Assembly: GCA_031394795.1 (NCBI GenBank) | Contig: JANNUB010000585.1 | Location: 1-38,164, forward strand | Source of the DNA: Ignavibacteriota bacterium | GTDB taxonomy: Bacteria > Bacteroidota > Ignavibacteria > UBA10030 > UBA6906 | Direction: 5' to 3' | Length of the DNA: 38,164 nucleotides | In this document: positions 12,625 to 35,503 of the stretch, in pieces | How the letters are laid out: every line of letters starts with the position of its first letter | Position numbering within the stretch: position 1 is the stretch's first letter | Notes under the pieces: model-generated | What the model was told of the DNA's origin: nothing | Databases searched by the model: none | Seen by the model: only the letters and a program-made list of their open reading frames with translations | Position numbers and translations under genes: made by a program

Positions 12625-12757
12625 ATCAATCTCGCGTTACGATCTTTCGAGTGAATCACTCATGTTACGCAGACAAGAGTCTCCTCTGTGCGAAAGCCTG
12701 CGTATAGAGTAGAGGGGAATCTGCAATTGAACGTTTCGGTGTCGTTCTATCCCCCAT

Positions 12758-13273
12758 TTATTTTGTCCGTCCAGTTACAATCTTGTCATATTCAATGTCG
12801 TTTGGCTCCCACAATTCAACCTTATTACCTTCAACGTCTATGATGTGAACAAATTTGCCGTATTCAAATGATTCTATTTTGTCAGCAATTGTCACGCCTT
12901 CTTTTTTTAGTTGTTCGACAAGTCCTTCCAGATTTTCAACTCTATAATTTATCATAAAGTCCTTTGTCGAAGGTTCAAAATACTTTGTTGTCTCGGTAAA
13001 TGGACTCCATTGCGTAAACCCTTTTTTTGTCGTGTCTGCGCCTTGTCGCCACTCAAAATTTGTCCCGTATTGGTCGGTGTCTAGACCCAAATGAGTTTTA
13101 TACCACTCTTTCATTTTGTTGGGGTCTTTACACTTAAAAAAGATACCGCCGATGCCTGTTACTTTTTTCATTTTATTGTTGTCGTTAGATTGTTTTGAAA
13201 TGATTGTGTTAAATGCGAAACAAAAACCGAATGATGTCACAAGTGCTAAAAATATTAATGTTTTCTTTTTCAT
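12758..13273 (-). CDS. VOC (glyoxalase/bleomycin-resistance) family protein with a signal-like N-terminus
   Basis: KVTGIGGIFFKCKDP, FMINYRVENL and YGKFVHIIDVEGNKVELWEP motifs; visibly more AT-rich than its neighbours. Confidence 0.88.
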   Translation of the reverse strand: MKKKTLIFLALVTSFGFCFAFNTIISKQSNDNNKMKKVTGIGGIFFKCKDPNKMKEWYKTHLGLDTDQYGTNFEWRQGADTTKKGFTQWSPFTETTKYFEPSTKDFMINYRVENLEGLVEQLKKEGVTIADKIESFEYGKFVHIIDVEGNKVELWEPNDIEYDKIVTGRTK

Positions 13274-14608: not shown

Positions 14609-14758
14609 TAACTGACGTTACGCACAGAGAAAAGATTTGCCACAAAGACTCTAAGGACACGAAGGTTTCACCAAGAAAAACATAAACTTTGTGAAGCCTT
14701 AGTGTCTTTGTACCTTAGTGGCAAAGCTTTTTTCTTGAGGCATGCGTAACGTCAGTTA
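14609..14758. mobile_element. MITE-like palindromic element (150 bp)
   Basis: Perfect 16-bp terminal inverted repeat TAACTGACGTTACGCA (14609-14624) / TGCGTAACGTCAGTTA (14743-14758), inner arms TTTGCCAC...AAGG / CCTT...GTGGCAAA, TA at both ends. Confidence 0.72.
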
Positions 14759-15735: not shown

Positions 15736-15744
15736 GCTGTGCTT

Positions 15745-17094: not shown

Positions 17095-18146
17095 GCTTCT
17101 TTGTCATGGTTTCTGAGGGCTGCATCAACGAGACGATCCGTAAGCTCAAGAAAATTTGTCCCCGCCAGCGAGGGAATGCATACGCCTTTCAGAGTTGTTA
17201 TTGCAGCAAGCCAGCTTGCACTTGCAATCTCTCCGGAACTCATTGCCCCAACCAGCGCTCCAACTGCTGCCGGAAGTGAATCGGCTGCCTTCGCAAACGA
17301 CGCCGCAGTTGTAAGAGCAAGTTCAAAGTCATGCCCGATCATTTTTGCGATGACGAAAGTGAGAGCAAGAGTTTCCGGTGCCGCGTTTCCATAGCTGTAC
17401 TCTCGATTGATGATCGTATTCTGAATTTTCGGATGCATCGAAAACAAAGAATCGCGATCATCTGCAAAAGCAAGCGCGTCATCGACCTTTCGTCGTACCA
17501 ATGAAGACATTGGAAGAAATTGAAGTGACGCGTCAAGAATTTCATTTACACTCTTTCCCACACACGCCAGACTTATTGCCGCAGAGAATGCCTGAGCCGC
17601 CCATACACCATCTTCAGCATTTGTGACAGAGGCATCAAGTGCAGCCATGCGTGCCGCTTTCTCCGGATTGCCCGCACAGAAAATGCCGATTGGTACTGCA
17701 CGGGAAACAGCGCCGTCGTCGAAGTAATGCGGGTTCTCTCTCCCCGAACGAGGAGGCTTAATATCTTTACGTAGGTTACTCAATGCGGCTTGCGTACTCA
17801 CTCCACCTTTGATGATTTCACCCGACTGTGCAAGCGTGAGCCACACGTCATGAAGCGCGCGTTCGAATCCATCATCTCTCTTTAAAAGAATATTCGTCGT
17901 GAACGCCGCCCACTCCGAATCGTCTGTCGGTGAAATGTCGAATGACTCCGCAGGCTGGTTCAGAGAAAACGGCATAGCCAACGCAAGTACGTTCGATGTC
18001 TCAGATGCAGCATCCATCTCGCGCCGAATCCTTCGCGTCCATGGAGGAAGTAAATAGCTGCGATGAAACATCGCAGTCCAACTGAGAGCATCACCGATTG
18101 CAAGACCCAGCATTGCATTCCGTGCACGTTCCCTGAGCGCGTTCAT
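17091..18146 (-). CDS. ADP-ribosylglycohydrolase family protein with a degenerate second metal motif (ARH-2)
   Basis: GLAIGDAL, PTDDSEW and NPHYFDDGA motifs; AKAADS in place of G-x-D-x-D-T. Start placed at the ATG (18146) that overlaps the upstream TGA. Confidence 0.85.
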   Translation of the reverse strand: MNALRERARNAMLGLAIGDALSWTAMFHRSYLLPPWTRRIRREMDAASETSNVLALAMPFSLNQPAESFDISPTDDSEWAAFTTNILLKRDDGFERALHDVWLTLAQSGEIIKGGVSTQAALSNLRKDIKPPRSGRENPHYFDDGAVSRAVPIGIFCAGNPEKAARMAALDASVTNAEDGVWAAQAFSAAISLACVGKSVNEILDASLQFLPMSSLVRRKVDDALAFADDRDSLFSMHPKIQNTIINREYSYGNAAPETLALTFVIAKMIGHDFELALTTAASFAKAADSLPAAVGALVGAMSSGEIASASWLAAITTLKGVCIPSLAGTNFLELTDRLVDAALRNHDKEA

Positions 18147-19135
18147 GTCGCTCGTCTCCATGATTCCGCAAGCCCTGCAAGTTCATCGGCAACTGAAACT
18201 ACGTTCATATTCCGGACGGCGGCAATACAAATTCCGCGGGAAGAGGATACCCGACGCGCCCAGCGTTCAGGAATTACGCCAACACCTTGGGACGCTCCAC
18301 AGATTGCTCCTGCAATGGCAGCAATCGTGTCGGTGTCTCTGCCAACATTGACAGCGCCAAGCACTGTGTCTTCGAACTTCCCTCTTGCTGCAGCAACAAT
18401 ACCGAATGCAAGTCCGACAGCTTCCGGCGCAACATCGGACCAGAAATAATATGAGCACGCAAGGGCAGTATGCAAAGGCTCAAGCGCGTTCCACACGTCG
18501 GGCGCAGACTCGCCAATCTTCACACCTTGCGCAATTGCATTCGCTGTCCATGATTCCTTCGGAAGGACATCCACTGCCGCGTGAAAAATTTTCTCCAGCG
18601 GCGCACCAGTCATTGCAACGGCAACGGCAGCCGCAACCGCCTGACCGCTGAATATTCCCTCACCTGCATGACTCACTGCACCATCCTCGGCAGCGAGATG
18701 GGCAGCCAACTGAGGATCGCCTGTTGCAGCAATCCCGAAGGGAGCGACGCGCATTGCAAGCCCGTCACTCCAACTGTGTAAATGCTGTCCGCTCGCCGGA
18801 GGCTGCATGCCTTCACGGAGATTTCTGATTGCCATCATCTCACTGAAGCCCGCGCCCTTATACGCGTTCGATGCTTTGATAATATCGCTCCGCCAGGCAT
18901 TTGCTACATGCGTAGAATTCAAATCGCGTCCATGAAGAAGCAGTAGCCGGGCGCTGAATAACGCATACTCCGTGTCGTCGCTTCCACCTTGATCATCAGA
19001 AAGGAAATCCGTTACGCGCCCCCAACGTGTTGCGATCTCGTGCGGTGATTTTCCTTCCGTCGGGCTACCGAGCGCATCGCCAACAGCCAGTCCGATGAGC
19101 ACACCACGCGCACGATCCGACAGTGTCATCACCAT
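18143..19135 (-). CDS. ADP-ribosylglycohydrolase family protein (ARH-1)
   Basis: GLAVGDALGSPTEG, GSDDTEY, SDGLAMRVAP, VSH and GRDTDTIAAIAGA motifs. Confidence 0.93.
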   Translation of the reverse strand: MVMTLSDRARGVLIGLAVGDALGSPTEGKSPHEIATRWGRVTDFLSDDQGGSDDTEYALFSARLLLLHGRDLNSTHVANAWRSDIIKASNAYKGAGFSEMMAIRNLREGMQPPASGQHLHSWSDGLAMRVAPFGIAATGDPQLAAHLAAEDGAVSHAGEGIFSGQAVAAAVAVAMTGAPLEKIFHAAVDVLPKESWTANAIAQGVKIGESAPDVWNALEPLHTALACSYYFWSDVAPEAVGLAFGIVAAARGKFEDTVLGAVNVGRDTDTIAAIAGAICGASQGVGVIPERWARRVSSSRGICIAAVRNMNVVSVADELAGLAESWRRAT

Positions 19136-20505
19136 GCCTCCCCGCGCTTCTTGTAACGTGAAAGGACAACATTACTTTCGAGTTCAATCCGTTGCGCTGC
19201 TTCTTCGATACTGAGACGCCCTGCGAACAATTCCTGGAGAACGGGATTTGCAACGCGGCTTTTCCACTCGACGTAACCGGGCGCGCCTAACCATGTGCCT
19301 GTCGAAAGAAATTGAACTGCAGAGCAGGTTATGTCCCAACCGTTCGCACTATCCTGAAACGCGGGCATCGCCAAACATGACTTGCGCGCGGGAATCATCC
19401 AATCATTGAGCGCGAGCCGCGCCATGTTTTTTGAATTGAGCATGAAGCTGATAAACTCCATTGCCTCTTTCACTCGTTTTGATTTTTTGGGGATGCTTAA
19501 CGTCTGCGCGCTCACACCGGAGAACTGTGTTGTTGCTTTGAGAGGCGGCATTACTCCCCATCTGAAATGCGTCGGAGCGTTTTCAACAAGCTGTTGCCGT
19601 CCCCACGCGCCGATGCCAATCAGCATAGCGTATCGTCCGCTGAAGAAGCCGGGAATCATTCCTGCACCGGTTTGCCCAATGCTCGAGGGTGACATAGATT
19701 TGTCGGCGTAGAGCATATCGACAATTGTTCCTAAGAGTTTCTTTTCCGGCTCTCCAACCTTCACAACAAAATGGTCTCCTTCCTTGCGGAAAAACGATCC
19801 ACCAAAACTAATCGAAGTGTTCATGATAATGTTGGCGGAATTGCGAAGACCGATGCCGGCTCCGTATTGATCAACAACGCCGTCGCTATTGAGATCTTTT
19901 GTCAACGTACGCGCAGCGTTGCGCACGTCATCCCAGGTCCACGGATGTTCGGTTGTTGGTCGACGACTCCCGACGGGTCGGCCTACGGCATCGTAGAGGG
20001 TCATCGACGACTCGTTGAGCGGCGCGATTCCCTCCCGCTCGAAAAGCGCTTTGTTGTAAAGCACCACCAGAGATTCGATCAGAAACGGAACGCCACCGAC
20101 TTCACCGTTCGGTCGTGTTACGGTTGCCCACGCAACATCAAGAATGTCATTTTTCATCTCCGGCTGAATGTACGGCGAAAGATCAGTAAGATAGCCGCGC
20201 ATCGCGTAGTCAATTATCACCGACGATTCATAGTGGAACACGTCGGGAACGTCGCCGGTCTCGAACGATGTAATCAGGTAGTCATGGACTGAATTCCATG
20301 TCCCCTGAATATATTCTACCTGAAGATTCGGATGAGCAGCATTCCATTCGTTCACAATTGATTTGTTGGTGGCAATCGCCTGTTCCTGCCACGCAAGGCT
20401 GACAAAGCGAAGATGGTCCGGGTCAGTCGCAGTATCATAGTGAAGACTCCAGTAGCCAACGACTGCAACCAAAACCAACACACCAATTACGATGTATTTC
20501 GTCAT
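19129..20505 (-). CDS. Carbohydrate ABC transporter solute-binding protein
   Basis: N-terminal hydrophobic anchor; EWNAAHPNLQVEY, GDVPDVF, LTDLSPY, LYNKALF and WTWDD motifs; follows two permeases. Confidence 0.88.
   Translation of the reverse strand: MTKYIVIGVLVLVAVVGYWSLHYDTATDPDHLRFVSLAWQEQAIATNKSIVNEWNAAHPNLQVEYIQGTWNSVHDYLITSFETGDVPDVFHYESSVIIDYAMRGYLTDLSPYIQPEMKNDILDVAWATVTRPNGEVGGVPFLIESLVVLYNKALFEREGIAPLNESSMTLYDAVGRPVGSRRPTTEHPWTWDDVRNAARTLTKDLNSDGVVDQYGAGIGLRNSANIIMNTSISFGGSFFRKEGDHFVVKVGEPEKKLLGTIVDMLYADKSMSPSSIGQTGAGMIPGFFSGRYAMLIGIGAWGRQQLVENAPTHFRWGVMPPLKATTQFSGVSAQTLSIPKKSKRVKEAMEFISFMLNSKNMARLALNDWMIPARKSCLAMPAFQDSANGWDITCSAVQFLSTGTWLGAPGYVEWKSRVANPVLQELFAGRLSIEEAAQRIELESNVVLSRYKKRGEAW
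19960..20019. repeat. In-frame 60-bp REP-like insertion inside the solute-binding protein gene
   Basis: Encodes LNESSMTLYDAVGRPVGSRR between GIAP and PTTEHPWTW. It has a TCGACGACTC direct repeat (19960, 20004), a CTACG/CGTAG hairpin and similarity to 5554-5608. Confidence 0.6.
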
Positions 20506-21338
20506 CCCTTCATCGCTCCTGACACTAAACCTTCAGTGAACCATTTCCGCAAGAAGCCAAACAGTATGACAGATGGAATTGTTGCAATCACACTCGCCGC
20601 TGCGAGAGGTCCCGTGCGCGCCTGTCCTTCCATTCCCGTGTACCGCGCCAACTCTACTTGCAACGTCACTAACTCAGGACTTTTCATGAGCACGAGAGCA
20701 AAGAAAAATTCATTCCATGCAGAAACAAATGCAAACAACGCTGACGCGCCAATTGCGGGAAGAAGCAATGGCATGATGACAAGGTAAATAACCTGTAACC
20801 GTGAAGCGCCGTCGATAGACGCAGCCTCTTCAAGTTCAATAGGAATGCTCTTGATATATCCATGCAACATCCATAAGACAAACGGCAACGCCCATACAAC
20901 ATAGACCAGTGTCAGTCCGGTGAGCGAATCAGTGAGTCCCATCCGCCGAAGCAAAACATACAACGGGATCATTATCAGAATCACAGGAAAGATTTGCGAT
21001 GTGAGAATCCATCCCAACATGACATTGTTCGCCGCGGACTTGTATCGCACAAGCGCGTATGCCGAGGGCACAGCGAGCACTATGACAATAATCGTCGAGA
21101 CGATTCCGACAACTACACTGTTCCACATACTCCGAAGAACGCGTTGCTCGCCGAGAACAGACGTGTAATGGTTCAGAGTCAGAGTCTGTGGCAGAATCGT
21201 GGGCGCCCCGGAATATATTTCCTGCGTAGGCTTCATCGAACTTGACACCACCCAGAACAATGGAAATAAGAGAAAGATGAGGTACACGATGATCAAGCTG
21301 TGAATTACTATTTTCACAAATCCTTTGTTCTCTTTCAT
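20502..21338 (-). CDS. Carbohydrate ABC transporter permease (MalG-like)
   Basis: SIPIELEEAASIDGAS (EAA loop), FVSAWNEFFFA and GLVSGAMKG motifs. Confidence 0.94.
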   Translation of the reverse strand: MKENKGFVKIVIHSLIIVYLIFLLFPLFWVVSSSMKPTQEIYSGAPTILPQTLTLNHYTSVLGEQRVLRSMWNSVVVGIVSTIIVIVLAVPSAYALVRYKSAANNVMLGWILTSQIFPVILIMIPLYVLLRRMGLTDSLTGLTLVYVVWALPFVLWMLHGYIKSIPIELEEAASIDGASRLQVIYLVIMPLLLPAIGASALFAFVSAWNEFFFALVLMKSPELVTLQVELARYTGMEGQARTGPLAAASVIATIPSVILFGFLRKWFTEGLVSGAMKG

Positions 21339-22264
21339 GCCGTAGTTCTCTCGCGAAGTTGAACACGAATATACATGAAGAGCACGATGGAAAGAACCAC
21401 CACCATGACATTGCCAATTGCCGCAGCATAACCAACATAACCATACCGGAATGCTTCTTCATACGCAGCAAGCATCGGGAGACGAGTCATCCCTCCGGGA
21501 CCGCCCTGCGTGAGAACCCAGACAAGACCAAACGTGTTGAAATTCCACATGAACGACAAGGACACAATTGCCGCCATGACGGGCTTCAGGGTCGGAAGTG
21601 TAATGTGCCAAAATTCTTCCCACCGCCCTGCGCCGTCGAGACGTGCCGCCTCGTACAAATCATTCGAGATTGATTGTAAGCCTGCAAGTAGAAAGACCGC
21701 AGCCTTGGATATCTCGCCCCAAACTCCGGCGATGACGACCGCGGGAAGAACATGCTCGAAACTTGAAAGCCAGTTTATGGGCGCGGAAATCAGCCCAACA
21801 TCCATAAGCATGATATTCAACGCGCCCGCGTCAGGATCGTAGATTTGCCGCCAGACTATGCCGCGAATAATTGGCGGCGTAGCCCACGGTATCAGCATGA
21901 CAATCGTGTAGAAGGATGTAAAACGGATTTTCGTGTTCAACAACAGAGCAAGTCCCAAACCGAGAAGCACCTGAAGCGCCGTCACAACAAGCGTCCACAT
22001 AATTCCGACTCTGAACGAATACCAGAAGTACTCATCCTTGAACAACTGGACATAATTGTCCAACCCATTGAACGTAATCGGATCGCCGAGGCGGTAATCG
22101 GTGAAGCCCAGATAAATCCCGCGCAGCAACGGGATGAGAGAGAAAAATCCCACAAGCAGAAACACCGGCAAGAGAAGCGCTACCTGTCCCTGTTTGTTGC
22201 GCTGAACCAGATTTTGTTTAGAGGATTTGTTCACCGTTGATTCGTGCATGAGGTTCTCACTCAC
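21335..22264 (-). CDS. Carbohydrate ABC transporter permease (MalF-like)
   Basis: GLDNY, LAGLQSISNDLYEAARLDGA, HITLPTLKP and LTQGGPG motifs. Confidence 0.94.
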   Translation of the reverse strand: MSENLMHESTVNKSSKQNLVQRNKQGQVALLLPVFLLVGFFSLIPLLRGIYLGFTDYRLGDPITFNGLDNYVQLFKDEYFWYSFRVGIMWTLVVTALQVLLGLGLALLLNTKIRFTSFYTIVMLIPWATPPIIRGIVWRQIYDPDAGALNIMLMDVGLISAPINWLSSFEHVLPAVVIAGVWGEISKAAVFLLAGLQSISNDLYEAARLDGAGRWEEFWHITLPTLKPVMAAIVSLSFMWNFNTFGLVWVLTQGGPGGMTRLPMLAAYEEAFRYGYVGYAAAIGNVMVVVLSIVLFMYIRVQLRERTTA

Positions 22265-24872
22265 GCCTGAACGGTGCAGTGCACGCTTCTATCAGTCGCT
22301 TTTCAAATTCTTCCTGATTTCCGCTGACCTTATTTCTTGCAGAAACAATGATCAGATCATTCTTTGGATCAACGCGAAACACTGCGCCCGACGCAGCAGC
22401 ATGCCCGAACGCTTCGCCGCTGAGTCCATGCCCTTCCATCGGAGATGTTCCGATGCCCCACCGACGATCGATGCCCGCAAGTTTCGCCGGAAGAAACTGA
22501 CGATAGGAATCTTCTGAAAAGAATCTGTATCCGTTAAGGGTTCCACGATTCAACAGCATCTGCCCGAGTCGTGCGAGATCGGCGGCAGTGCAATACAATC
22601 CGCCATAAGTGTTGTCGGCGTACGCAGATTTCATTCCAAGGGGAGTGAAGAGATAATCCTGAAACAAATACGGCACGGCGCGACCTGTTATCCGTTCCAT
22701 GATCTTTCCTGCAATCGCATAGCCTGCTCGATGATATGAAAACTTCTCTCCGACTTTTAAGAAGGGAAGAACTTGTGCAACCTGGTTTTCGAGCGCAGAA
22801 TTCCAATCCGAAGCCCACTCTCCCGCCCAACCGTCCAGCCCCGTTGTGTGGGTAAACAAGTGCCGGACTTTCAGTTTGCTTTCTACCGCCGACGATAATT
22901 CGGGGAGATATTTTTCAATGGGCGCACCAAGTTCAACAAGTCCTTGATCAACAAACTGCATCATCAACACGCCAGTGAGAAGCTTGGTGATTGATGCCAT
23001 CCAAAACGGCGAATCAATAGCAACTTCAAATTCGTCCACTTTGGTGTTGAACGCCTCATGAAAGACAATTCGTCCTTTGTAAGCAATCAGTGCTACGTGT
23101 GGCTCTGCAGCATCGCTTGCCCAAGCACGGCAGACATTCCGAATTTGTTTAAGATATGTTTGATTGAAGGGAGATGTCGAAACAGGATTCTCTTCAAGAA
23201 GAAGGCTTGTTTCATTTTCTTTCTTCGGCAACGAAAGTGGAACTGCGCCTTTTCCATAAATAGGCTGTTTGAAAGTAATCCACCATTGACGGTCCCTCAG
23301 TCGAGGCGTGTCCGTCCGACTCGCAACAGAATCAATCTCTGAGAGACCGGCAAGAAACACTGCTGCATCTGCTTCGTGCCTTGGAAACATTTTCATTGTG
23401 CCAAAAGCAAAACGGTTTTCGCTCCGTTCGTACAGTCGCCATTGTGCTTCGCTGATGCCATAGTCTTTTAACCGATTAAACTTGAGAGGAATGTTCTCAC
23501 TGTAGTCATCGAATTCAACGGGCGAGCAGTAGAGCGTAATAAAGCGTCTCATCGTGAAGCCCGAAGGTAGAACGCCTTCGACTACAGCGGCGTATCGCCC
23601 CGTCTTCTCGGCGCGCGTAACCTGTCGCATGTTCTTATCATAGTACGCTAGCTTCAGTGAAAATTTTCCCATCTCATTATCAACCATCGCGGGCCGCTTC
23701 CATCGGACTTCGGGAAATTCGCCGGGCGGAAACACGTAACGGTCGCATTCCAATTGCTCCTCAAGAAATGCTCGCAGCCTCCGTCGGTTGATTTGATCCC
23801 AATGAATCGCGTCAACGTTTTTGCCTGCGACTTGGATTGATGTAATCTGATCGTTGGATGGTTGGAGATGACGGGGAATGAGAACAGAGGTCTTTGCAAT
23901 AATTCCATCCGGGCGAAGCCGCTCTTCCGCAATCACCTTGCCTGATGACAGAACTCGTACGATGGATCCGGCATCTCTTCTTCTGCCGCAAAGCGTAAGT
24001 GACGCCTCTCCAAAATTCCACAACTCAACATGAGAAAAGAAATCGCGGCGTTCCTTCCTCTGAAGAAACTGAATCGCATCTCTGTAAGCAAACAACCTGA
24101 ACCAAACTTCAGTATTCGATTTTCTTCCACGGACGCGAACAGTAAGCGGTTTGTTCGGCGTTATCCTTGAACGAGGAACCGTCAGCGCCATATAGCCAAG
24201 ATTTGCGCCGTTCGAGTTTCTTGCCGCGGTAACGAATGCAAGGCTGCCCCCTTTGCCGGAGACAGTCCATGAACTGTTGTTCGGTGTTGAGAAGGAGAGT
24301 GCGAACGAGTTGTCGATCTCAAGATCGAACCACTCGTTGCCGAGATTATTTCCGAAGCCGCAGACCCAAAGAAACGACGCCGAATCACCTTTCCACGATA
24401 ACGGAACGGTTGCCGTCTGCCACTCGATCATCGCCTCGCCGCCGGATGTCCGTGCAACAAAAGCTGAATCGCGTCGGGGGCCGCTTCGGTGCGATGAATA
24501 GGGAGAAAACGAACCGGAGAGAATCGAATCGTACCCTTCAAACCAATTGTCCGGTTCAGATTCGATTGTGAAATGCAGTCTGGCAATAGACTCAATATCT
24601 ACTTGTCCGAATCCGACAGAGCACATCAACATCATCGCGGATGCACGCAAGATTCTGATGAGAGTAGAGTTGAGGTTACGGAGAAGCGCAGTTGAAAAGC
24701 CTGAACCGCAGAGAACGCAGAGGTCGCAGAGAAAGGAAGTTTTGTTTTTGTTCGTAATTCCAATTCTTTTCTCTGCGCTCTCGGCGGTCTCTGCGGTTAA
24801 ATTCTTTGTTTGATGGGTTTTCAACCGTGCTTCTATGATGGCGAGATGCCGCTTTTTGTTTTTCTCAATCAT
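22257..24872 (-). CDS. Multidomain serine hydrolase: uncharacterised N-terminal region + class C beta-lactamase/esterase VIII-like domain
   Basis: FWMASITK (SxxK), RHLFTHTTGL, FSYHRAGY, ADLARLGQMLLNRG and FGHAAASG motifs. Start placed at the ATG (24872) overlapping the upstream TGA; the 5' region contains a repeat element, so the start is uncertain. Confidence 0.75.
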   Translation of the reverse strand: MIEKNKKRHLAIIEARLKTHQTKNLTAETAESAEKRIGITNKNKTSFLCDLCVLCGSGFSTALLRNLNSTLIRILRASAMMLMCSVGFGQVDIESIARLHFTIESEPDNWFEGYDSILSGSFSPYSSHRSGPRRDSAFVARTSGGEAMIEWQTATVPLSWKGDSASFLWVCGFGNNLGNEWFDLEIDNSFALSFSTPNNSSWTVSGKGGSLAFVTAARNSNGANLGYMALTVPRSRITPNKPLTVRVRGRKSNTEVWFRLFAYRDAIQFLQRKERRDFFSHVELWNFGEASLTLCGRRRDAGSIVRVLSSGKVIAEERLRPDGIIAKTSVLIPRHLQPSNDQITSIQVAGKNVDAIHWDQINRRRLRAFLEEQLECDRYVFPPGEFPEVRWKRPAMVDNEMGKFSLKLAYYDKNMRQVTRAEKTGRYAAVVEGVLPSGFTMRRFITLYCSPVEFDDYSENIPLKFNRLKDYGISEAQWRLYERSENRFAFGTMKMFPRHEADAAVFLAGLSEIDSVASRTDTPRLRDRQWWITFKQPIYGKGAVPLSLPKKENETSLLLEENPVSTSPFNQTYLKQIRNVCRAWASDAAEPHVALIAYKGRIVFHEAFNTKVDEFEVAIDSPFWMASITKLLTGVLMMQFVDQGLVELGAPIEKYLPELSSAVESKLKVRHLFTHTTGLDGWAGEWASDWNSALENQVAQVLPFLKVGEKFSYHRAGYAIAGKIMERITGRAVPYLFQDYLFTPLGMKSAYADNTYGGLYCTAADLARLGQMLLNRGTLNGYRFFSEDSYRQFLPAKLAGIDRRWGIGTSPMEGHGLSGEAFGHAAASGAVFRVDPKNDLIIVSARNKVSGNQEEFEKRLIEACTAPFRRE
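24682..24834. mobile_element. MITE-like palindromic element (153 bp), in frame within the 5' end of the serine hydrolase gene
   Basis: Imperfect terminal inverted repeat AGAAGCGCAGTTGAAAA / TTTTCAACCGTGCTTCT. Inner arms are built from CGCAGAG 9-nt-period repeats. A related copy lies at 32157-32517. Confidence 0.72.
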
Positions 24873-26563
24873 CTTGTATGCGACAGAAGCCAATCATAGA
24901 TAGCAGGATTATTGTACGTTCTCGTCCAGGAGTCGTGGTAAAGATCCGGATAGATAGTAAACGTTGGATTTCCGCCGCACGCTATCAAAGCCGTGATAAC
25001 ACTTTGTGCTCTATTGAGAGTAATAATTGGATCTACAGCACCATGAAATGCCCACATCGGAATATTGGTTAGAGCGCAAACATTCCAACCGGGTTCGATA
25101 CGAAATGCAATCGGGATTATCGCCGCGAAGCGTTGCGGGTAACGGATTGCCAAATCCAATGTTCCAATTCCGCCCATGCTTAATCCTGTTAGGTAAATAC
25201 GATTTGTATCTACGGAATATCGCGCAATGACACTATCAATCAACTTGTTCAACAATACCTGGATTCCATCATTGTAGTACCATTCCGTAGTCGAAGGACA
25301 TTGTGGAGAAACAACGATGAACGGGAAAGAATTGTATCCATCCAGAATTTTCGGCAGACCTTCACCTTTCACTCGCCACAGTTCGCTCCCGCGCTCACCA
25401 ATTCCATGCAATGTTATGATGAGGGGAAATTTCCCGGCAATCACCGCCGACGTATCCCGCGGCCTAAAAAGCAAATAGTTGAGCGATGATGGATCATAAA
25501 CTTCTTGTTGGACTATCGGCGTCTCGGTAAAGTTCGGCTGGCCCAATACAAAATCTGCATTCGCTCCGTTCGCCTTCGCTGCCGCATTGTTAAAAATCAT
25601 TATACGGTTGTTTGACTCATCAGTAAGATACAATCTGCCGGCTGCATCACCAAACACTCCCCGCAGATTACTCACTCCGTTTTGTGTTGTGTTTGTCGCG
25701 TTAGAAGTAAAGTCCGGTTGCCCCAACACTCCATCAGCCGCCGCTCCGTTCGGTTTTGCCGCCGCGTTGTCAAACCGAATCGCGCGATTATTATCATCTT
25801 CACAAACCCACAAACGGCCCGCCACGTCTGCATACACGCCCATCGGTCTGTTCATTTTTGTTGATGAGAGACCGCTTGTCCCAGTTGTAAAATTAGATTG
25901 TCCCAATACTCCGTCTGCGTTCGCTCCATTCGTTTTCGCTGCCGCATTATCAAACCGTAATACGCGATGATTGAGTCTGTCTGCTACCCACAAGCGACCT
26001 GCTGCATCAACAAAAACCCCAACTGCTCCATTCATCGTGCCGGCTGTTGTGCCGCTGCTTCTCGTTGTAAAATCCGGTTGTCCTAACACACCATCGGCGG
26101 CTGATCCTGTTGCCTTCGTTGATGCGTTGTCAAATCGTAATACACGGTTGTTGGCGTAATCGCCGACCCATAACCGTCCCGCGGCATCCACATAGGCTCT
26201 GAGCGGATCATTGAACTTTGTTGAAGAGATGCCGCTTGAGCCTGTTACAAAATTAGGCTGACCAAGCACTGCTTCGGCTGCAGATCCGTTCGTCATTTTG
26301 GCGGCTGAACTCCAGCGCAGAACTCGGTTGTTGTACCGATCAACAACAAACAGTTTTCCCGTTGTAGAATCAATTGCCACTCCGGATGGAGCCTGCAACG
26401 TGCTTGATGTTGTTCCAAATGTGTTTGTTGAAAAATCCGGCTGACCTAATACACCGCTCGCGGGCATGTTGTTTGACAGAGGGAGTTGGGCATAGGCTGA
26501 CCCCGACAGTAAGAGCAGTAGCGTACATTGCACCGCTTTGTGTTTTATGACCGTCATCCTCAT
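24869..26563 (-). CDS. Secreted protein: five NHL repeats fused to a C-terminal alpha/beta-hydrolase (esterase/peptidase-like)
   Basis: Signal peptide ending AYA|Q; five G(K/R)L(W/F/Y)xxD/E..NxR repeats with VLGQPDF linkers; LHGIGERG, TGLSMGG, FHGAVD and HDSW motifs; no T9SS C-terminal domain. Confidence 0.85.
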   Translation of the reverse strand: MRMTVIKHKAVQCTLLLLLSGSAYAQLPLSNNMPASGVLGQPDFSTNTFGTTSSTLQAPSGVAIDSTTGKLFVVDRYNNRVLRWSSAAKMTNGSAAEAVLGQPNFVTGSSGISSTKFNDPLRAYVDAAGRLWVGDYANNRVLRFDNASTKATGSAADGVLGQPDFTTRSSGTTAGTMNGAVGVFVDAAGRLWVADRLNHRVLRFDNAAAKTNGANADGVLGQSNFTTGTSGLSSTKMNRPMGVYADVAGRLWVCEDDNNRAIRFDNAAAKPNGAAADGVLGQPDFTSNATNTTQNGVSNLRGVFGDAAGRLYLTDESNNRIMIFNNAAAKANGANADFVLGQPNFTETPIVQQEVYDPSSLNYLLFRPRDTSAVIAGKFPLIITLHGIGERGSELWRVKGEGLPKILDGYNSFPFIVVSPQCPSTTEWYYNDGIQVLLNKLIDSVIARYSVDTNRIYLTGLSMGGIGTLDLAIRYPQRFAAIIPIAFRIEPGWNVCALTNIPMWAFHGAVDPIITLNRAQSVITALIACGGNPTFTIYPDLYHDSWTRTYNNPAIYDWLLSHTR

Positions 26564-27099
26564 TTCAACAAACCCATCTTCCTCACTTCGTTCCTGTTTG
26601 CAGAGCGGAGTGTGTAGAAGTAAATTCCGCTTGGAAGATCCCTCGCGTCAAATGAAAGTGAATACAGTTCGTTTGCTGCTGCCACTCGGTTAAAAAGCGT
26701 CGCCACCTGCTGACCAAGCAAATCATATACTGCTACTGTTGCATGCTCGGTGTTCCGCATTGCAAATGTGATTGTTGTGCTCGGGTTAAACGGATTGGGA
26801 TAGTTCTGAGCAAGTTTGTACTGTTCCGCTCTTAACGGAGCATCTGCCTCGGATACACTCGTGAGCGACGAAACATCAAACCGCATCACACGGTTATGGT
26901 CAAAGTCTGCGACCCAGATATTTCCACTATGAGAATCTACAAAGAGAGATTGGGGATACGCGAGATTACGCGCTGTAGGAGGACTTGCTACTCTTTTGAC
27001 CGCAGGAAGATCGCTTGACAAAGAGCGTTGAGCATATGAGGACAAACTTGTTGTTATCAACAAAAGGAGCAGAGTGAATTGCATCTTGTTGTGGGTCAT
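26560..27099 (-). CDS. Small secreted protein: one NHL blade + T9SS type A C-terminal domain
   Basis: Start MTHNKMQF (ATG 27099); signal peptide ending SYA|Q; single repeat YPQSLFVDSHSGNIWVADFDHNRVMRF; LAQNYPNPFNP...LPSGIYFY...KMGLLK. Confidence 0.75.
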   Translation of the reverse strand: MTHNKMQFTLLLLLITTSLSSYAQRSLSSDLPAVKRVASPPTARNLAYPQSLFVDSHSGNIWVADFDHNRVMRFDVSSLTSVSEADAPLRAEQYKLAQNYPNPFNPSTTITFAMRNTEHATVAVYDLLGQQVATLFNRVAAANELYSLSFDARDLPSGIYFYTLRSANRNEVRKMGLLK

Positions 27100-27139
27100 A
27101 GAACATCCGGAAGAATATTTTTGCTGTTGCTGTTTTAGG

Positions 27140-27173
27140 TATTGGAAGGGTGGCTCACGCCACCCTTCCAATA
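27140..27173. other. Perfect 15-bp stem hairpin in the intergenic region (possible mRNA-stabilising, processing or atypical terminator structure)
   Basis: TATTGGAAGGGTGGC-TCAC-GCCACCCTTCCAATA, about 37 nt downstream of the large NHL gene stop. No U-tract follows it on the minus strand. Confidence 0.6.
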
Positions 27174-27210
27174 AAAACTGACATTACAATGATCGTTGCT
27201 GAGCGTGGTA

Positions 27211-29790
27211 CTATTTCATCAAGATCATTTTTTTCGATTCGTTGCTGCTTTTGGAACGGAGCGAGTAGATGTACACCCCACTCGGAAGATTTGCCGCGTC
27301 GAATGAAATCGTGTATCGGTCGTTCGCAGCCGCCACTCCACTAAAGAGCGTTGTTACTACCTGACCAAGCAAATTATAGACCGTGACTGTCGCATGTTCA
27401 GTGTTCTTCAGCGCGAAGGTAATTGTTGTGCTCGGGTTAAACGGATTGGGATAGTTTTGCGAGAGTGAATAGATCGTTGGTGTCTGAGCGAACAGATTTT
27501 CCCTAACGGCTGTGGGCAATCCAATCTGCACAGCGAACCGCACGACGCGATTATTTCCTGCATCGGCCACCCAGATCTGATTACTGGCGTTGTCGATGAA
27601 CATGGAATTGGGGGAGGAGAAACTGCTGGCTGTCGGAGGTAGCGCTGCTGTTCCAGTGACAAAATTCGGCTGGCCCAAAACATTATCAGCATTCGCTCCG
27701 TTTGCCAAACTTGCTGCATTATTGAAAACCAAAATACGGTTGTTCGCGAATTCTTCCACAGCATATATTCTTCCCCGTGCATCTCCCCATACACCACGGA
27801 CATTGCTCATTCCGTTCTGTGTCGGGGTAGGAGCCGTTTTCGTCGTGAAATTGGTTTGCCCTAAGACTCCGTCTGCAGCCGCTCCGTTGGGTTTTGATGC
27901 CGCACCGTCAAAGCGCAACACGCGATTATTCACATCATCTGCAACCCATAACCGACCACCCACATCCACAAACACACCGAACGGCTCTTCCATTTTTGTT
28001 GCACTCAAACCGGCTATTCCTGTTACAAAATCCGCTTGTCCTAAGACGCCATCCGCCGTTGCGCCATTGGCTTTCCCTGCCGCATTGTCAAACCGTAGTA
28101 CACAATGGTTGTCCCGTTCAGCCACCCACAGACGCCCGCTTCCATCTACAAAAATTCCAGTTGTGCGAGTCATTTTCGTGGCGCTAGTTCCGGCAGTGTT
28201 CGTCACAAAATCCGGTTGTCCCAATACTCCGTCAGCGGCTGCGCCTGTAGCTTTCGATGCGGCGTTGTCAAAACGTAATACTCGTCTATTGCCGTAGTCA
28301 CTCACCCACAACCGTCCACCTCCATCGACATAGAGTCTCACCGGAGTGTTCATCTTTACCGCGGATAACCCGCTGGTATTTGTTGTATCATCCGGCTGGC
28401 CCAATACCGCTTCGGCTGCCGATCCGGTAATCAACTTCGCTGCTGAACTGAAACGAAGAACCCGGTTGTTGTTACGATCGGCGACAAACAATTTCCCTGT
28501 CGTCGGGTCCACTGCAACACCAAACGCATTGTTCATCGTGCTCGCTGTTTTGCCTGTTGTCCTTGTGACAAGATTTGCCTGACCTAATACGCTGCTCGCA
28601 GGCAAACCAAATATGAATGTAACATCGTTGACAGCAAACCGCGTTACTCGATTATTTCCTGCATCAGCCACCCAAATCTGATTACTGGCATTGTCGATGA
28701 ACATCGAATTCGGGAACGCAAAACTACTTGCCGTCGGCGGATCCAGAACAATACCGGTGGTGAAATTCGCCTGACCCAACACGTTATCCGCATTCGCTCC
28801 GTTTGCAAGACTTGCTGCGTTATTAAAAACCACAATCCGGCAATTGCCTTCATCCACGAGATACAATCTTCCGCGCGCATCTCCCCATACGCCTCGGACA
28901 TTTCCCGTTCCGTTCTGGGTCGTGCTATAGGTGTTCGTCGTAAAATTGGGCTGTCCCAACACACCATCCGCCGCTGCGCCGTTGGCCTTTCCTGCCGCAT
29001 TGTCAAATCGTATCGCACGATTGTTAACATCTTCAGAAACCCACAAACGACCACCAGCATCGACAAACACACCAAACGGCTCATTCATTTTTGTTGCACT
29101 CAAACCGCTGGTCCCAGTCACAAAATCCGGCTGCCCTAATACTCCATCCGCCGCTGCACCGTTGGCCTTTCCAGCCGCATTATCAAACCGTAGTACACGG
29201 TGGTTATCTCGTTCTGCTACCCAGAGGCGACCACCTCCGTCGACATACAGTCCCGTCGTGCGTGTCATTTTCGCAGCCGTGGTTCCGGCAGTGTTCGTTA
29301 GAAAATCCGGTTGTCCCAAGACTCCATCCGCCGCTGCGCCCGTGACTTTCGCCGAGGCGTTCTCAAAGCGTAACACACGTCGGTTGCCGTAGTCACTTAC
29401 CCACAACCGCCCCGCGGCATCAACAAATACGCGGATCGGCGTGTTCATCTTCACCGCTGATAGCCCACTGGTATTTGTCGTATCATCCGGCTGACCCAGT
29501 ACCGCTTCGGCTGCCGCTCCAGTATTCAACTTCGTCGCTGAACTGAACCGCAGTACACGGTTGTTGTTACGATCGGCAACAAACAACTTCCCTGTTGTCG
29601 GATCCACTGCCACGCCAAACGCATTGTTCATCGTACTTGCTGTCTTGCCCGTCGTCCTCAACACAAAATTTGTCTGCCCTAACACGTTGCTCGCAGGCAT
29701 GTTATTTGACAACGGGGCCTGGGCATACACTGTGAGACTTACAACTACCAAAAGCAGTGTAGCAAATAGACTCTTTCTGCAGTTTTTCAT
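27211..29790 (-). CDS. Secreted double NHL-propeller protein (2 x 6 repeats) with a T9SS type A C-terminal domain
   Basis: Start MKNCRK (ATG 29790) preceded by GGAGG; signal peptide ending VYA|Q; 12 NHL repeats in two near-duplicate blocks; LSQNYPNPFNP...LPSGVYIY...KKMILMK. Confidence 0.9.
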   Translation of the reverse strand: MKNCRKSLFATLLLVVVSLTVYAQAPLSNNMPASNVLGQTNFVLRTTGKTASTMNNAFGVAVDPTTGKLFVADRNNNRVLRFSSATKLNTGAAAEAVLGQPDDTTNTSGLSAVKMNTPIRVFVDAAGRLWVSDYGNRRVLRFENASAKVTGAAADGVLGQPDFLTNTAGTTAAKMTRTTGLYVDGGGRLWVAERDNHRVLRFDNAAGKANGAAADGVLGQPDFVTGTSGLSATKMNEPFGVFVDAGGRLWVSEDVNNRAIRFDNAAGKANGAAADGVLGQPNFTTNTYSTTQNGTGNVRGVWGDARGRLYLVDEGNCRIVVFNNAASLANGANADNVLGQANFTTGIVLDPPTASSFAFPNSMFIDNASNQIWVADAGNNRVTRFAVNDVTFIFGLPASSVLGQANLVTRTTGKTASTMNNAFGVAVDPTTGKLFVADRNNNRVLRFSSAAKLITGSAAEAVLGQPDDTTNTSGLSAVKMNTPVRLYVDGGGRLWVSDYGNRRVLRFDNAASKATGAAADGVLGQPDFVTNTAGTSATKMTRTTGIFVDGSGRLWVAERDNHCVLRFDNAAGKANGATADGVLGQADFVTGIAGLSATKMEEPFGVFVDVGGRLWVADDVNNRVLRFDGAASKPNGAAADGVLGQTNFTTKTAPTPTQNGMSNVRGVWGDARGRIYAVEEFANNRILVFNNAASLANGANADNVLGQPNFVTGTAALPPTASSFSSPNSMFIDNASNQIWVADAGNNRVVRFAVQIGLPTAVRENLFAQTPTIYSLSQNYPNPFNPSTTITFALKNTEHATVTVYNLLGQVVTTLFSGVAAANDRYTISFDAANLPSGVYIYSLRSKSSNESKKMILMK

Positions 29791-29869
29791 ACAACCTCCA
29801 TAAATTAGAAACATGAAATAGTGAATCAAGTATTTTGAAATTTCTGAATAGCTGTTGTTGAAATGAAAT

Positions 29870-32083
29870 TTATTTCGCAAGGATCATCTTTCTTGTTTCG
29901 GTAATGCTCCCTGCGCTCAGTTTGTAGAAATAGACGCCGGTGGGAAAATCCGACGCGTCCCACGTAGCCTTGTGAATTCCGGCAGCCATCGGTTCATTCA
30001 CAAGCGTGGCGACTTCTCTTCCCAACACATCGTACACCTTCATCGTCACGCGACTGACCTCTGATCTCTGACCTCTGACCTCTGCTATTTGAAATCTGAT
30101 CTCTGTCGTCGGGTTGAACGGATTGGGATAGTTTTGATGCAAAGCAAAACTCGAAGGCGATGTTCCTGTTTCTTCGACCGAGACCACAAGATCATTTCGA
30201 TACACCGTCAATCCATCAATGCGCTCGGCAACGTATGCAAAGCCGCCGTCAACGGCGACACCGCGTGCAATGGGAACGCCATCGTAGAATCCCGCAAGAA
30301 CCGGAGCTGCAGGATTTGTGATATTGACTACCCGCAGACCACGATCATCGGCGGGCACGTAGACGTAATTTCCGCTGATCGCCGCGGCATAGCCGTAACC
30401 GCGTGTCCACACTTTGCCAACTTGCACCGGCGTCGCGATGTTAGAAATATTGTACACGCGAAGCGAGTCTCCATCAGGAGCGTACGCGAAATTCCCGGCA
30501 ATTGCCAAGCCTTCATTACCGCTGACGAGAGTCCCAGTTTGTCCACCTGCGACAGGGGCAGCCGGATTCGTGACATTATAGAAACGAATCAAGTTGAAAA
30601 GGCTCGTAGCGACAACGTTGCCTGCCGCTGCAACGTTTTCGACATCGATGCCTCGTACATTGGTAAGCCACGTGGGATTTGCGGGATTCGTTATGTTCAA
30701 AACAACAAGGCCGCTATCGCGTGTTGCGACGTACACATAATTGCCATTGATTGCAATTCCGCGAGCGCGTGATGTTGCAATTCCACGGATTGATACGGGC
30801 GCTGCGGGATTCGTCGCATTGATCACGCGTACACCGGAATCCATATCTGCAACATACGCATACCCGCTGCGCACCACAACATTGCGGGCTTCACCGGGTG
30901 TGTCAAGTACTCCGAGAAGCGTCGGGTTGCTGGGTGTCGAGACATCGAGAATTCGCAGACCCGCGCTGCCATACGCGACATAGACTTTGTTGTTATCATA
31001 AAATGCACTGAAGGCAGATCCGGAAGCAGCGTTCTGAGAACCGAGGAACCCTGACGTTGTCGGTGTCGCGGGAATTGAAACGTTAATTGCACTCAACCCG
31101 GATACTGTTGTACGGTTTGAAACATAGATGTGACCTGTCGGGTTACCGCCAATAGTGATCGCTCCATAATAGACAGATGCCGCGCGCCCGACGGTGCCGA
31201 TCCTACTGACATACGTTGGCGCTGCCGGGTTCACGACATTGATAATTCTCATCCCTGAGTCTCCGTTGGCGACGTAACCATAGTTTCCATCGAACACAAT
31301 GCGCGCAGTCCGGTGACCGGTCGGAACCTCCATTACATTGACCGGATTTGCAGGATTTGTGACGTTGATAACCTGGAGGCCTGCGTCGAAGTTGCAGACA
31401 TAGGCGTAGCCCGAGCGTACATTGAGATATTGGTGGTATCCGCCGTAGCCGGCTATTCTTCCAGTGTACACCGGTGCCGTGGGAGTTGAAATGTTCACGA
31501 TATGACTTCTTCCCGCTGCGGCAATGTATGCATAGGGTGACGAGATCACAACGCTCTCGCAGTACGCGAGGCTGTCAATAGATGCCGCAAGCGTTGGGCT
31601 TGCCGGAGTTGCGATGCTATATATTTTTAGCCCGGCACCTCCCGCCGCGACATACGCGTACGTTCCACTTGTCGCAACACCTTCGCATATTGCGCCGGTG
31701 CCAACCTCGACAGTCGAAGTAAGAGACGGGGTCGTTGGATTCTGTACATTGATGAGCCACATCTTGCTGCCTCCGGTAACCACGAGATATTGGTTTCCAC
31801 CAATCGATGTTCGCACCAAATCTTCAACGACTTCGGACAATGTTACACTGGCAATTCTTACAGGTGCAGACGGAACGGAGAAGCTTGCAATCTGTACCTT
31901 ACTTCCAAGTCCGTAAAACACAAGCGAGCCTGCGGCAAAAACCGCTTTCGATTCTCCTTCCCCCTTTCCGAAATTCCCAAGCTGCGTGACGTTCAGTACC
32001 TCCTGGGAGAACGCCAATTGCGCGGAGAGCACAACACACAGGAATGCAAGCAGTGGATGGAACGTTGGTATTTTTTTGTTCAT
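29870..32083 (-). CDS. Secreted LVIVD-repeat protein with a T9SS type A C-terminal domain
   Basis: Signal peptide ending AFS|Q; many GxYAYVA....GLx(I/V)(I/L)(N/D)(V/I)(S/T)NPxxP repeats; LHQNYPNPFNP...GVYFYKL...RKMILAK. Confidence 0.9.
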   Translation of the reverse strand: MNKKIPTFHPLLAFLCVVLSAQLAFSQEVLNVTQLGNFGKGEGESKAVFAAGSLVFYGLGSKVQIASFSVPSAPVRIASVTLSEVVEDLVRTSIGGNQYLVVTGGSKMWLINVQNPTTPSLTSTVEVGTGAICEGVATSGTYAYVAAGGAGLKIYSIATPASPTLAASIDSLAYCESVVISSPYAYIAAAGRSHIVNISTPTAPVYTGRIAGYGGYHQYLNVRSGYAYVCNFDAGLQVINVTNPANPVNVMEVPTGHRTARIVFDGNYGYVANGDSGMRIINVVNPAAPTYVSRIGTVGRAASVYYGAITIGGNPTGHIYVSNRTTVSGLSAINVSIPATPTTSGFLGSQNAASGSAFSAFYDNNKVYVAYGSAGLRILDVSTPSNPTLLGVLDTPGEARNVVVRSGYAYVADMDSGVRVINATNPAAPVSIRGIATSRARGIAINGNYVYVATRDSGLVVLNITNPANPTWLTNVRGIDVENVAAAGNVVATSLFNLIRFYNVTNPAAPVAGGQTGTLVSGNEGLAIAGNFAYAPDGDSLRVYNISNIATPVQVGKVWTRGYGYAAAISGNYVYVPADDRGLRVVNITNPAAPVLAGFYDGVPIARGVAVDGGFAYVAERIDGLTVYRNDLVVSVEETGTSPSSFALHQNYPNPFNPTTEIRFQIAEVRGQRSEVSRVTMKVYDVLGREVATLVNEPMAAGIHKATWDASDFPTGVYFYKLSAGSITETRKMILAK
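30054..30084. repeat. Heptamer tandem repeat (CTGA(C/T)CT, about 4.4 copies) inside the C-terminal domain coding region
   Basis: ctgacct ctgatct ctgacct ctgacct ctg; encodes AEVRGQRSEVS. Confidence 0.75.
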
Positions 32084-32156: not shown

Positions 32157-32517
32157 TAGAAAGTCTTCTGGAAAAAATTCTAACCGCAGAGAGCGCCGAG
32201 GTCGCAGAGAAAAGAATTGAAATAGGAAAAAAAACAAAAATCCTTTCTTCGCGACATCTGCGTAGCAAACCCGAGGAATCATGTTTTCTCAGCAAGATTT
32301 TCCAAGCCAAAGAGAAAAAGCGAAACCACGGATTGCGCAGATTAACGCAGATTAGACTCCATCACCAAGGGTTGTATGTTGGTCGAATTGGACTCATAAA
32401 AAAACAATCAGTGAAAATCCGTGAAATCTGTGGTTCAGTTTTTCTTTGGTTGCGGCTTTGCTGCGCTGCGTTCTCTGCGGTTGAGTTCTTTCTTCCCAGC
32501 TTTTCGTCCGCGCTTCT
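32157..32517. mobile_element. Composite of nested MITE-like palindromic elements
   Basis: Outer AACCGCAGAG...CTCTGCGGTT element homologous to 24682-24834, interrupted by an AGCAAA...TTTGCT-bounded segment. That segment contains an AACCACGGATT...AATCTGTGGTT hairpin. Confidence 0.68.
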
Positions 32518-35472: not shown

Positions 35473-35503
35473 TGTAATCTTTCGCGTTGCACGTGGTACG
35501 TTT

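Follow-up and report, generated by a model that had tools for sequence, protein, structure and literature searches.

A two-gene NHL propeller of Ignavibacteriota: a probable 5+1 heteromer in which the lone blade would carry the type IX secretion signal

Natural beta-propellers are almost always single chains, and hetero-oligomeric propellers built from fragments failed, as stated in an account of designed propellers in which the Pizza designs derive from an NHL propeller and assemble as homo-oligomers (PMC6805158). For Sec13 it was described that a blade of Nup145C, Sec31 or Sec16 completes its open six-bladed WD40 propeller in trans, residues 1–6 of Sec13 forming the outermost strand (PMC2922654). 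Type IX secretion system (T9SS) cargo is described as carrying its own C-terminal domain (CTD) (PMC8545088; PMC11285876), folded proteins are moved by the T9SS according to a review (PMC9251779), and a signal sequence together with a CTD on mCherry leads to T9SS export (PMC10994853). Ignavibacteriota may possess a T9SS (PMC11285876). Here, we describe two neighboring genes of an Ignavibacteriota bacterium in which these two themes seem to meet. They lie in a stretch of 38,164 nucleotides (positions 1–38,164 of contig JANNUB010000585.1, assembly GCA_031394795.1), in the following called the window, and are referred to as the small gene (179 residues) and the big gene (564 residues) (Table 1). 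An earlier note on this DNA, made from the letters alone, had claimed that one gene supplies NHL blades 1–5 plus a hydrolase and its neighbor blade 6 plus a secretion domain, and both alignments and domain matches agree with this. The best explanation is that the two products form a heteromeric 5+1 propeller which provides the T9SS signal in trans; with co-export of both proteins included, we consider this probable. That the two pieces assemble into a closed 5+1 ring is judged to be the considerably safer part of this explanation and very likely.

The reference for the blade numbering is the intact NHL paralogue encoded next to the pair (27211–29790). Its translation contains two runs of six NHL repeats, the sixth of each run having the form PPTASSF...NQIWVADAGNNRV, as had been noticed before; it matches Pfam NHL with 156.3 bits (cut-off 20), followed by a Por_Secre_tail CTD (PF18962, 46.4 bits). 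The big protein matches Pfam NHL with 74.9 bits at the same cut-off and is in register with paralogue residues 22–359 (68% identity) and 396–710 (67%), whereas alignments offset by one repeat reach 46–49% identity only. This shows that its repeats correspond to blades 1–5 in order, as the earlier note had proposed. The similarity to the paralogue stops after residue 346, i.e., with the NFT of VLGQPNFT at nucleotide 25526, the end point given in the earlier note, and the first strand of a would-be repeat 6 lies just before. Measured against a closed six-bladed ring in a single chain, the big protein has five blades and not six, both by sequence and in the AlphaFold2 (AF2) model. Beyond this point it continues, as also read before, into a GxSxG hydrolase domain (Abhydrolase_2, PF02230, 44.6 bits, cut-off 23) with the motif GLSMG at residues 460–464. 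S462, D511 and H543 are invariant in 51 big-protein homologs and by their position would form a Ser-Asp-His triad. No CTD was found in the big protein with Pfam or NCBIfam at E ≤ 0.01, and a family scan gave a Por_Secre_tail match in none of the 51 homologs. At the other end, a signal peptide is predicted by eye, followed by a strongly conserved segment, residues 26–41, in which Q26, L29, A35, G37, V38 and G40 are invariant and P28, N32, M33 and P34 nearly so among the 51 homologs.

The small protein supplies the missing parts. Its residues 38–179 are 58% identical to paralogue residues 716–859, comprising blade 6 and the CTD, compared to 38–48% over shorter stretches for the other paralogue blades. 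The single NHL repeat scores 18.9 bits with PF01436, just below the cut-off of 20, and the CTD is recognized by TIGR04183 (46.1 bits, cut-off 23, residues 100–174 of 179) and PF18962 (45.5 bits, cut-off 27); TIGR04183 is matched by all 50 small-protein homologs. By eye, the N-terminus looks like a signal peptide, with basic n-region, Leu-rich core and AxA|Q site, as the earlier note had it, and the repeat 6 and complete CTD given there agree with the matches above. In the alignment of the 50 homologs, conservation is highest in the blade (residues 40–80), where Y48, P49, Q50, S51, D55, W62, D65, R70 and R73 are invariant, and the linkers between signal peptide and blade and before the CTD vary in sequence and length. 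The blade signature YPQS...DF.N.RV.RF occurs in all 24 loci with intact genes (see below) and stands 23–25 residues before the CTD motif in the 23 loci in which this could be measured; blade 6 of the closest paralogs, present there in cis, reads YPNS...DAGNNRV and lies 25–26 residues before the CTD. Signature and spacing fit a single, old origin from a piece consisting of blade 6 and the CTD.

The start of the mature small protein had been likened in the earlier note to the start of a propeller. This likeness stands in close relatives only; across the 50 homologs the segment is variable in sequence and length, with a 6-residue indel, and it lies outside the predicted interface. Its interpretation as a relic of a propeller N-terminus was rejected. 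In both families an invariant glutamine follows immediately on the predicted signal-peptidase site, i.e., Q26 in the 51 big proteins and Q24 in the 50 small proteins (window positions 26486–26488 and 27028–27030), and is found in the paralogue as well. In the paper on the Bacteroidetes 'Q-rule', Ignavibacterium album is given with a high Q-value of 77% (PMC5837995), and the invariant glutamine at the predicted +1 position of both families matches this rule.

The arrangement is conserved across genomes. A scan with the esterase part, using one genome per species, resulted in 42 loci, 29 of which encode a close relative (65–87% identity); the 13 remaining loci encode distant esterases (28–47% identity) in open reading frames (ORFs) of 188–388 residues without NHL repeats. 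Three of the 29 loci (L018, L027, L039) were too short for the upstream gene to be called, leaving 26 assessable loci, 24 with intact ORFs and two frameshifted (L003, L026). The small gene is located directly upstream of the big gene and on the same strand in 26/26 assessable loci (24/24 with intact NHL-esterase ORFs and 2/2 frameshifted), which answers the search for the same two-gene split in other genomes that the earlier note had suggested. The small genes of the 24 intact loci, taken as longest ORFs, encode 164–218 residues homologous to the 179-residue protein of the window. The distance from the small-gene stop to the start of the longest big ORF is −35 to +33 nucleotides in 23 of the 24 loci and 185 nucleotides in one (L004); the overlap of −4, read in the window as ATGA just as the earlier note had it, recurs in L001, L002, L023 and L024. 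The pair was found in a closed 3.7-Mb chromosome (L013) and in contigs of up to 958 kb.

Database searches gave the same picture. Of the best 120 matches of the big protein, 116 are 530–586 residues long, 69–100% identical, and consist of NHL repeats and hydrolase without PF18962; the other four are paralogs of about 860 residues with PF18962. Among the 120 matches listed for the small protein (98–310 residues), 119 contain PF18962. A single chain combining NHL, esterase and CTD was absent from the best 120 big-protein matches of 310–987 residues, below which more divergent fused forms of 600–987 residues could still rank, and from 28 Pfam-scanned representatives of the best 150 esterase-domain matches; furthermore, none of 81 long esterase relatives (988–2820 residues) contains NHL. 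The possibility raised by the earlier note that relatives have only intact single-chain genes was therefore not borne out: the relatives have the same two-gene split, with no CTD in any of the 51 big homologs and no NHL-esterase-CTD chain found in these searches. Among genomes of the Ignavibacteriota type, the module is both old and stable.

Several observations accompany this survey. In the two frameshifted loci all genes of the cluster are frameshifted and the assemblies are of the long-contig type, which looks like assembly indel error and not gene decay. Bins titled Chitinophagales/Chitinophagaceae (L001, L009, L010), Bacillota (L020), Parachlamydiaceae (L023) and Babeliales (L027) carry genes 65–87% identical to those of the window, probably due to binning errors. 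The gene upstream of the small gene (L001–L031) encodes an NHL-CTD protein with one propeller (493–582 residues), two (859–946) or three or more (1355–1427). Propeller copy number in this neighbor is thus fluid across genomes, and the split pair is fixed. In about ten loci an ORF of roughly 730–750 residues with a CTD end like that of the window's protein lies upstream (e.g., L002, L005, L011, L013, L014, L019, L020, L021, L022, L025, L031); the LVIVD repeats were read in the protein of the window only.

Selection was analyzed with Nei-Gojobori proportions of non-synonymous (pN) and synonymous (pS) differences for the window and 24 loci, i.e., 300 pairs, of which 51–180 were usable depending on the region. 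Since the median pS is about 0.8 in all regions, synonymous sites are saturated in most pairs, and contrasts in pN and the closest pairs were used instead of absolute dN/dS. The median pN of the small protein amounts to 0.168 in the blade and 0.329 in the CTD, with 0.588 and 0.598 in its two linkers; in the big protein it is 0.179 for the NHL part and 0.148 for the esterase. This puts the lone blade under the same degree of constraint as the big-protein blades. In the closest pair (L002/L024) the blade has a pN of 0.021 versus a pS of 0.361. Relaxed selection on the small gene, considered as a possible outcome in the earlier note, is absent in the blade and was rejected for blade and CTD by the pN/pS analysis.

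The AF2 model of the big protein, computed from the alignment of 51 sequences, has a mean predicted local distance difference test (pLDDT) score of 87.5 and a predicted template modeling score of 0.61. It contains five four-stranded blades, from strands 59–64, 71–75, 80–84 and 98–100 on to 300–305, 311–315, 320–324 and 338–340, with pLDDT values mostly above 90. Blade 5 ends with the VLGQ strand 338–340, and linker residues 346–349 leading into the hydrolase fold fall below 50. Residues 26–58 form no strand in the monomer model, although residues 26–41 are among the most conserved of the family. Such a conserved strand without a partner in its own chain would be expected of a closure (velcro) strand awaiting a foreign blade. 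With Foldseek, the propeller part superposes on six-bladed NHL domains such as that of Trim71 (8j72_B; root-mean-square deviation 2.8 over 276 columns, TM score 0.74 by target), the big protein also matches Pizza6 designs, and the C-terminal part superposes on the esterases 3doh and 4q82. This superposition is suggestive of five sixths of a six-fold ring, for which it does not prove an open geometry. Modeled alone, the small protein has strands at 50–55, 60–65 and 70–75 (pLDDT 52–67), a beta-sandwich CTD (86–96) and two disordered linkers.

For the multimer prediction, which the earlier note had proposed as a check, mature big protein (residues 25–564) and small-protein residues 23–95 were used, each with its own alignment. 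The interface score ipSAE is 0.96, 0.95 and 0.96, compared to 0.00 for the best of three controls, with at least 75% contact agreement between the runs and a partner pLDDT of at least 63. In a calibration, 58 of 80 solved complexes and 2 of 110 mismatched pairs attained this ipSAE mark, counts which are only rough here because our own alignments were used. The confident interface comprises small-protein residues 40–59 and 61–82 with big-protein residues 25–41, blade 1 (55–76) and blade 5 (301–321, 340–342). Big-protein residues 35–41 pair with small-protein residues 70–74 at an expected error of 0.4–0.6 Å. The donated blade is placed into the gap between blades 5 and 1 with the N-terminal strand of the big protein outermost, so that the ring is closed, and the esterase domain lies outside the interface.

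The passenger appears to be a serine carboxylesterase with an intact Ser-Asp-His set. In the Protein Data Bank (PDB), the esterase domain matches an esterase (3doh, 5.8e-28), a phospholipase/carboxylesterase (4q82, 1.1e-22) and LC-Est1C (3wyd, 5.7e-17), and more weakly ferulic acid esterases and one esterase of the polyhydroxybutyrate (PHB)-depolymerase family. An assignment as PHB depolymerase, a name used in some database records, was rejected: TIGR01840 gives 48.1 bits against a cut-off of 107.85, and NF050058 (extracellular short-chain-length polyhydroxyalkanoate depolymerase) 64.8 against 150. When cluster representatives were searched exhaustively for the esterase domain, 20,590 proteins were obtained at E ≤ 0.001, in which the NHL-esterase family is represented by one 566-residue protein (76% identity). 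Two relatives, P0248 (924 residues, 58% identity) and P0256 (948 residues, 54%), combine the esterase near the N-terminus, an LVIVD propeller after it and a CTD in a single chain. P0245 (523 residues, 65%) has N-terminal LVIVD repeats much like the 737-residue protein of the window and then the esterase, and P0257 (492 residues, 59%) has Sortilin/BNR-like repeats and then the esterase, both without CTD; these two might be parallel split systems, each with an own gene for the rest of the propeller and the CTD. A junction motif before the esterase is common to the window protein, these four relatives and others. Further relatives scanned carry CBM9, SASA, 3-keto-disaccharide hydrolase or GNAT domains, and PF18962 is present in cis in 54 of the 81 long relatives, as counted from the listing. 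Judged by these domain arrangements, the esterase type is a common T9SS passenger, usually found beside carbohydrate-related modules, and behaves as a movable module. The fusions with carbohydrate-binding and carbohydrate-esterase domains point to de-esterification of extracellular polysaccharides or polyesters.

From these data the following course can be proposed. Each of the two proteins would reach the periplasm via a signal peptide of its own, as judged by eye. The big subunit would fold with five blades, a gap of one blade and a free, conserved N-terminal strand. Residues 40–80 of the small subunit are predicted to insert as three strands into the gap between blade 5 and blade 1, and the N-terminal strand of the big subunit to add the fourth, closing the ring. 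Assembly would take place in the periplasm, as no other route through the outer membrane is known for the big protein. The folded heterodimer would then be recognized by the T9SS via the CTD of the small subunit and exported, and after removal of the CTD the complex may be released or held on the cell surface by the C-terminus of the small subunit. As to the origin, a blade-6-plus-CTD piece and a blade-1–5 piece probably derive from duplicated NHL-CTD genes, the latter having been fused to the mobile esterase module. Simple gene fission does not explain the order, since the blade-6 gene is upstream. Complementary deletions after tandem duplication, one of the options of the earlier note, are plausible as an origin and compatible with complementation in trans, which is the best supported of the options given there by the presence of the pair in 26/26 loci, the constraint on the blade, the partnerless strand and the complex model.

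The same observations can be read in other ways, and several points weigh against the proposed course. The small protein is less conserved overall (36–71% identity) than the big protein (65–84%), the upstream position of the blade-6 gene is not an arrangement left by simple fission, and no T9SS machinery genes were recognized within the window. The complex model may reflect the model's memory of intact six-bladed NHL propellers, because these are well represented in solved structures and halves of split domains tend to pass such a test; it speaks for the fit of the pieces and says nothing on binding in the cell. In one alternative reading there is no physical complementation at all and each product works alone: complementary deletions after duplication would have left a five-bladed piece that suffices as binding module of a periplasmic or vesicle-borne esterase, and a small protein serving as a minimal surface peptide of the T9SS with its own function. 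The gene order suits duplication and deletions and not fission, the small-protein blade alone is modeled at modest confidence (pLDDT 52–67), and the esterase occurs on other partial propellers without CTD (P0245, P0257), suggesting that truncated propellers may be tolerated. However, this would leave unexplained why conservation in the small protein peaks in the lone three-strand blade and why the big protein keeps a nearly invariant, unpaired N-terminal strand; the genes are adjacent, often overlapping, in all 26 assessable loci, and the predicted interface is exactly at the position of the missing blade. We regard it as improbable. An artefact, i.e., an assembly error across repeats as considered in the earlier note or pseudogene debris, is negligible in comparison: the near-identical NHL repeats of the region can confuse assemblers, but the two ORFs are intact and adjacent in 24 independent assemblies, both genes are under purifying selection, and mis-assembly is excluded because the same arrangement is found in many independent assemblies including the closed 3.7-Mb chromosome (L013).

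Other points concern the export step only. The co-export step would require a translocon that tolerates non-covalent complexes. No report of a T9SS cargo borrowing the CTD of a partner, be it as piggyback transport, hitchhiking or CTD-less co-secretion, was found in the open-access literature, from which subscription papers may differ. CTD-less extracellular enzymes of Bacteroidota were ascribed to outer-membrane vesicles in one source, opening another route out for the big protein (PMC6247017). These points weigh against co-export and favor an assembly without it, in which the small subunit would be a periplasmic assembly or quality-control partner, a surface docking peg for esterase released by vesicles or lysis, or a regulator switching on a ligand site of the propeller. 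Such an assembly draws on the same structural evidence as the proposed course. It leaves aside that the CTD is invariably on the small protein (50/50) and never on the big one (0/51) and that a CTD in cis is routine among relatives of this esterase, the simplest account of which is one export signal for the pair; moreover, for a blade exported alone to meet its partner, the latter would have to cross the outer membrane too. We hold assembly without co-export to be unlikely, though a little less so than the absence of complementation, and prefer the heteromeric 5+1 propeller with the secretion signal in trans. The broadest form of this preferred explanation, namely that the T9SS exports a non-covalent passenger via a 17-kDa adaptor donating the cargo's missing blade, is put forward tentatively and with more doubt than confidence; it would be the first T9SS hitchhiker route and the first natural heteromeric (5+1) bacterial beta-propeller. 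Bolder still, the pair might be one case of a general design to which the truncated LVIVD and BNR-type propellers of P0245 and P0257 belong as well.

Table 1. Features of the split propeller locus and its neighbors in the window (positions of the forward strand; residue numbers of the respective protein).
Feature	Position	Strand	Description
Big gene	24869..26563	-	564 residues: signal peptide, N-terminal closure (velcro) strand, NHL blades 1–5, serine esterase; without T9SS CTD
Signal peptide of big protein	26489..26563	-	Residues 1–25, predicted cleavage AYA|Q; by eye: basic n-region, Leu-rich core, AxA
N-terminal strand of mature big protein	26441..26488	-	Residues 26–41; predicted fourth, outer strand of the blade donated in trans
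NHL blades 1–5	25526..26440	-	Residues 42–346; ends with the VLGQ strand closing blade 5
Linker and alpha/beta-hydrolase esterase domain	24872..25525	-	Residues 347–564; nucleophile Ser462 at 25178–25180
Small gene	26560..27099	-	179 residues: signal peptide and variable linker, then three strands of NHL blade 6, a second linker and the T9SS type A CTD
Donated blade	26860..26982	-	Small-protein residues 40–80; blade 6 strands A, B and C
T9SS type A C-terminal sorting domain	26563..26814	-	Small-protein residues 96–179; PF18962, TIGR04183
ATGA overlap	26560..26563	-	Small-gene stop codon inside big-gene start codon; read from sequence
Hairpin	27142..27171	-	13-bp stem, 4-nucleotide loop; between paralogue stop and small gene
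Intact NHL paralogue	27211..29790	-	859 residues: signal peptide, two complete six-bladed NHL propellers, T9SS CTD; reference for blade numbering
LVIVD-repeat propeller protein with T9SS CTD	29870..32083	-	737 residues; Pfam LVIVD 195.5 bits, PF18962 37 bits; belongs to the conserved neighborhood

Between the paralogue and the small gene lies a hairpin (27142–27171) with a perfect 13-bp stem and a GTGA loop, with a folding energy of −30.6 kcal/mol and a z-score of −7.8; none of 200 shuffled sequences folds as well. A T-run is absent 3′ of the stem. In most of the 24 loci a hairpin occupies the corresponding intergenic position, with no fewer than two different stem sequences among them, a count made without shuffle control. 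The hairpin of the window is probably the end of the upstream (paralogue) transcript, in which case the small and the big gene would form a unit of their own. Scans of positions 24500–30200 gave 10 sigma-70 promoter-like sites where 6.4 ± 2.7 were expected and 2 terminator-like sites where 5.9 ± 2.6 were expected; both were uninformative, and the terminator scan did not list this strong hairpin.

In an ORF of up to 878 residues directly beyond the esterase gene (22257–24893, minus strand), a beta-lactamase/transpeptidase-like domain (PF00144, 139.6 bits) is confined to the last 270 residues, and the long N-terminal part gave no family match. The longest form of this ORF shares 25 nucleotides with the end of the esterase gene, so that the true start probably lies further in. 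A sugar-type ABC transporter (19129–22264) follows, and directly downstream of it are four tandem genes of the ADP-ribosylglycohydrolase family (14752–19135, minus strand; 327, 449, 356 and 330 residues), an unusual quadruplet for this family. The rest of the window (389–13273 and 32516–38149) encodes 6-phosphogluconate dehydrogenase, hexuronate genes (UxaC, UxaE-like), a LacI regulator, an 812-residue protein with CBM9 and DUF5916, citrate lyase subunits and a TonB-dependent receptor; two ORFs at 32516–35514 (343 and 655 residues) gave no Pfam match.

If the proposed export in trans is true, the prediction of T9SS secretomes would change, as CTD-less neighbors of tiny CTD proteins would count as cargo, and the translocon would be able to pass a non-covalent complex. 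A conserved natural 5+1 pair would moreover be a ready model for fragment complementation and for the splitting and rebuilding of repeat folds, and a 40-residue blade docking on a five-bladed partner is a possible secretion or display adaptor.

In comparison with known systems, the nearest mechanistic analogs are Sec13 and Seh1 of the COPII coat and the nuclear pore, where three strands come from the partner and the outermost one from the N-terminus of the propeller itself. The same geometry is predicted here, with small-protein residues 40–82 as donor and big-protein residues 35–41 as the outer strand. The Sec13 family consists of cytosolic, eukaryotic WD40 propellers with 6+1 blades and a large helical scaffold as donor, whereas the pair described here is an NHL propeller with 5+1 blades of the bacterial periplasm or extracellular space, with a tiny donor whose sole further domain is a secretion signal, translationally coupled genes and a complex that is predicted. 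There is no sequence relationship, and the likeness is an analogy of mechanism and not membership. With ordinary T9SS type A cargo, such as the 859-residue NHL protein, P0248 and P0256, the pair has the CTD family, propeller and esterase passengers, neighborhood and host group in common; in that cargo, however, enzyme and CTD are in one chain, while here they are on separate polypeptides. Hitchhiker (piggyback) export is known for substrates of the twin-arginine translocation (Tat) pathway and for multi-subunit substrates of type II secretion, in which a signal-less folded subunit is carried by its partner. It uses another machinery and membrane, and the coupling here would be through a shared domain and not through a subunit interface. 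Similarly, in engineered propellers (tachylectin-2 fragments, Pizza NHL designs and WRAP fragments) fragments form whole rings non-covalently, as predicted here, yet these are laboratory homo-oligomers of identical pieces, whereas the pair would be a natural, asymmetric 5+1 heteromer. Completion of a propeller in trans and T9SS cargo are each already known, and the novel element is the secretion signal on the blade donor.

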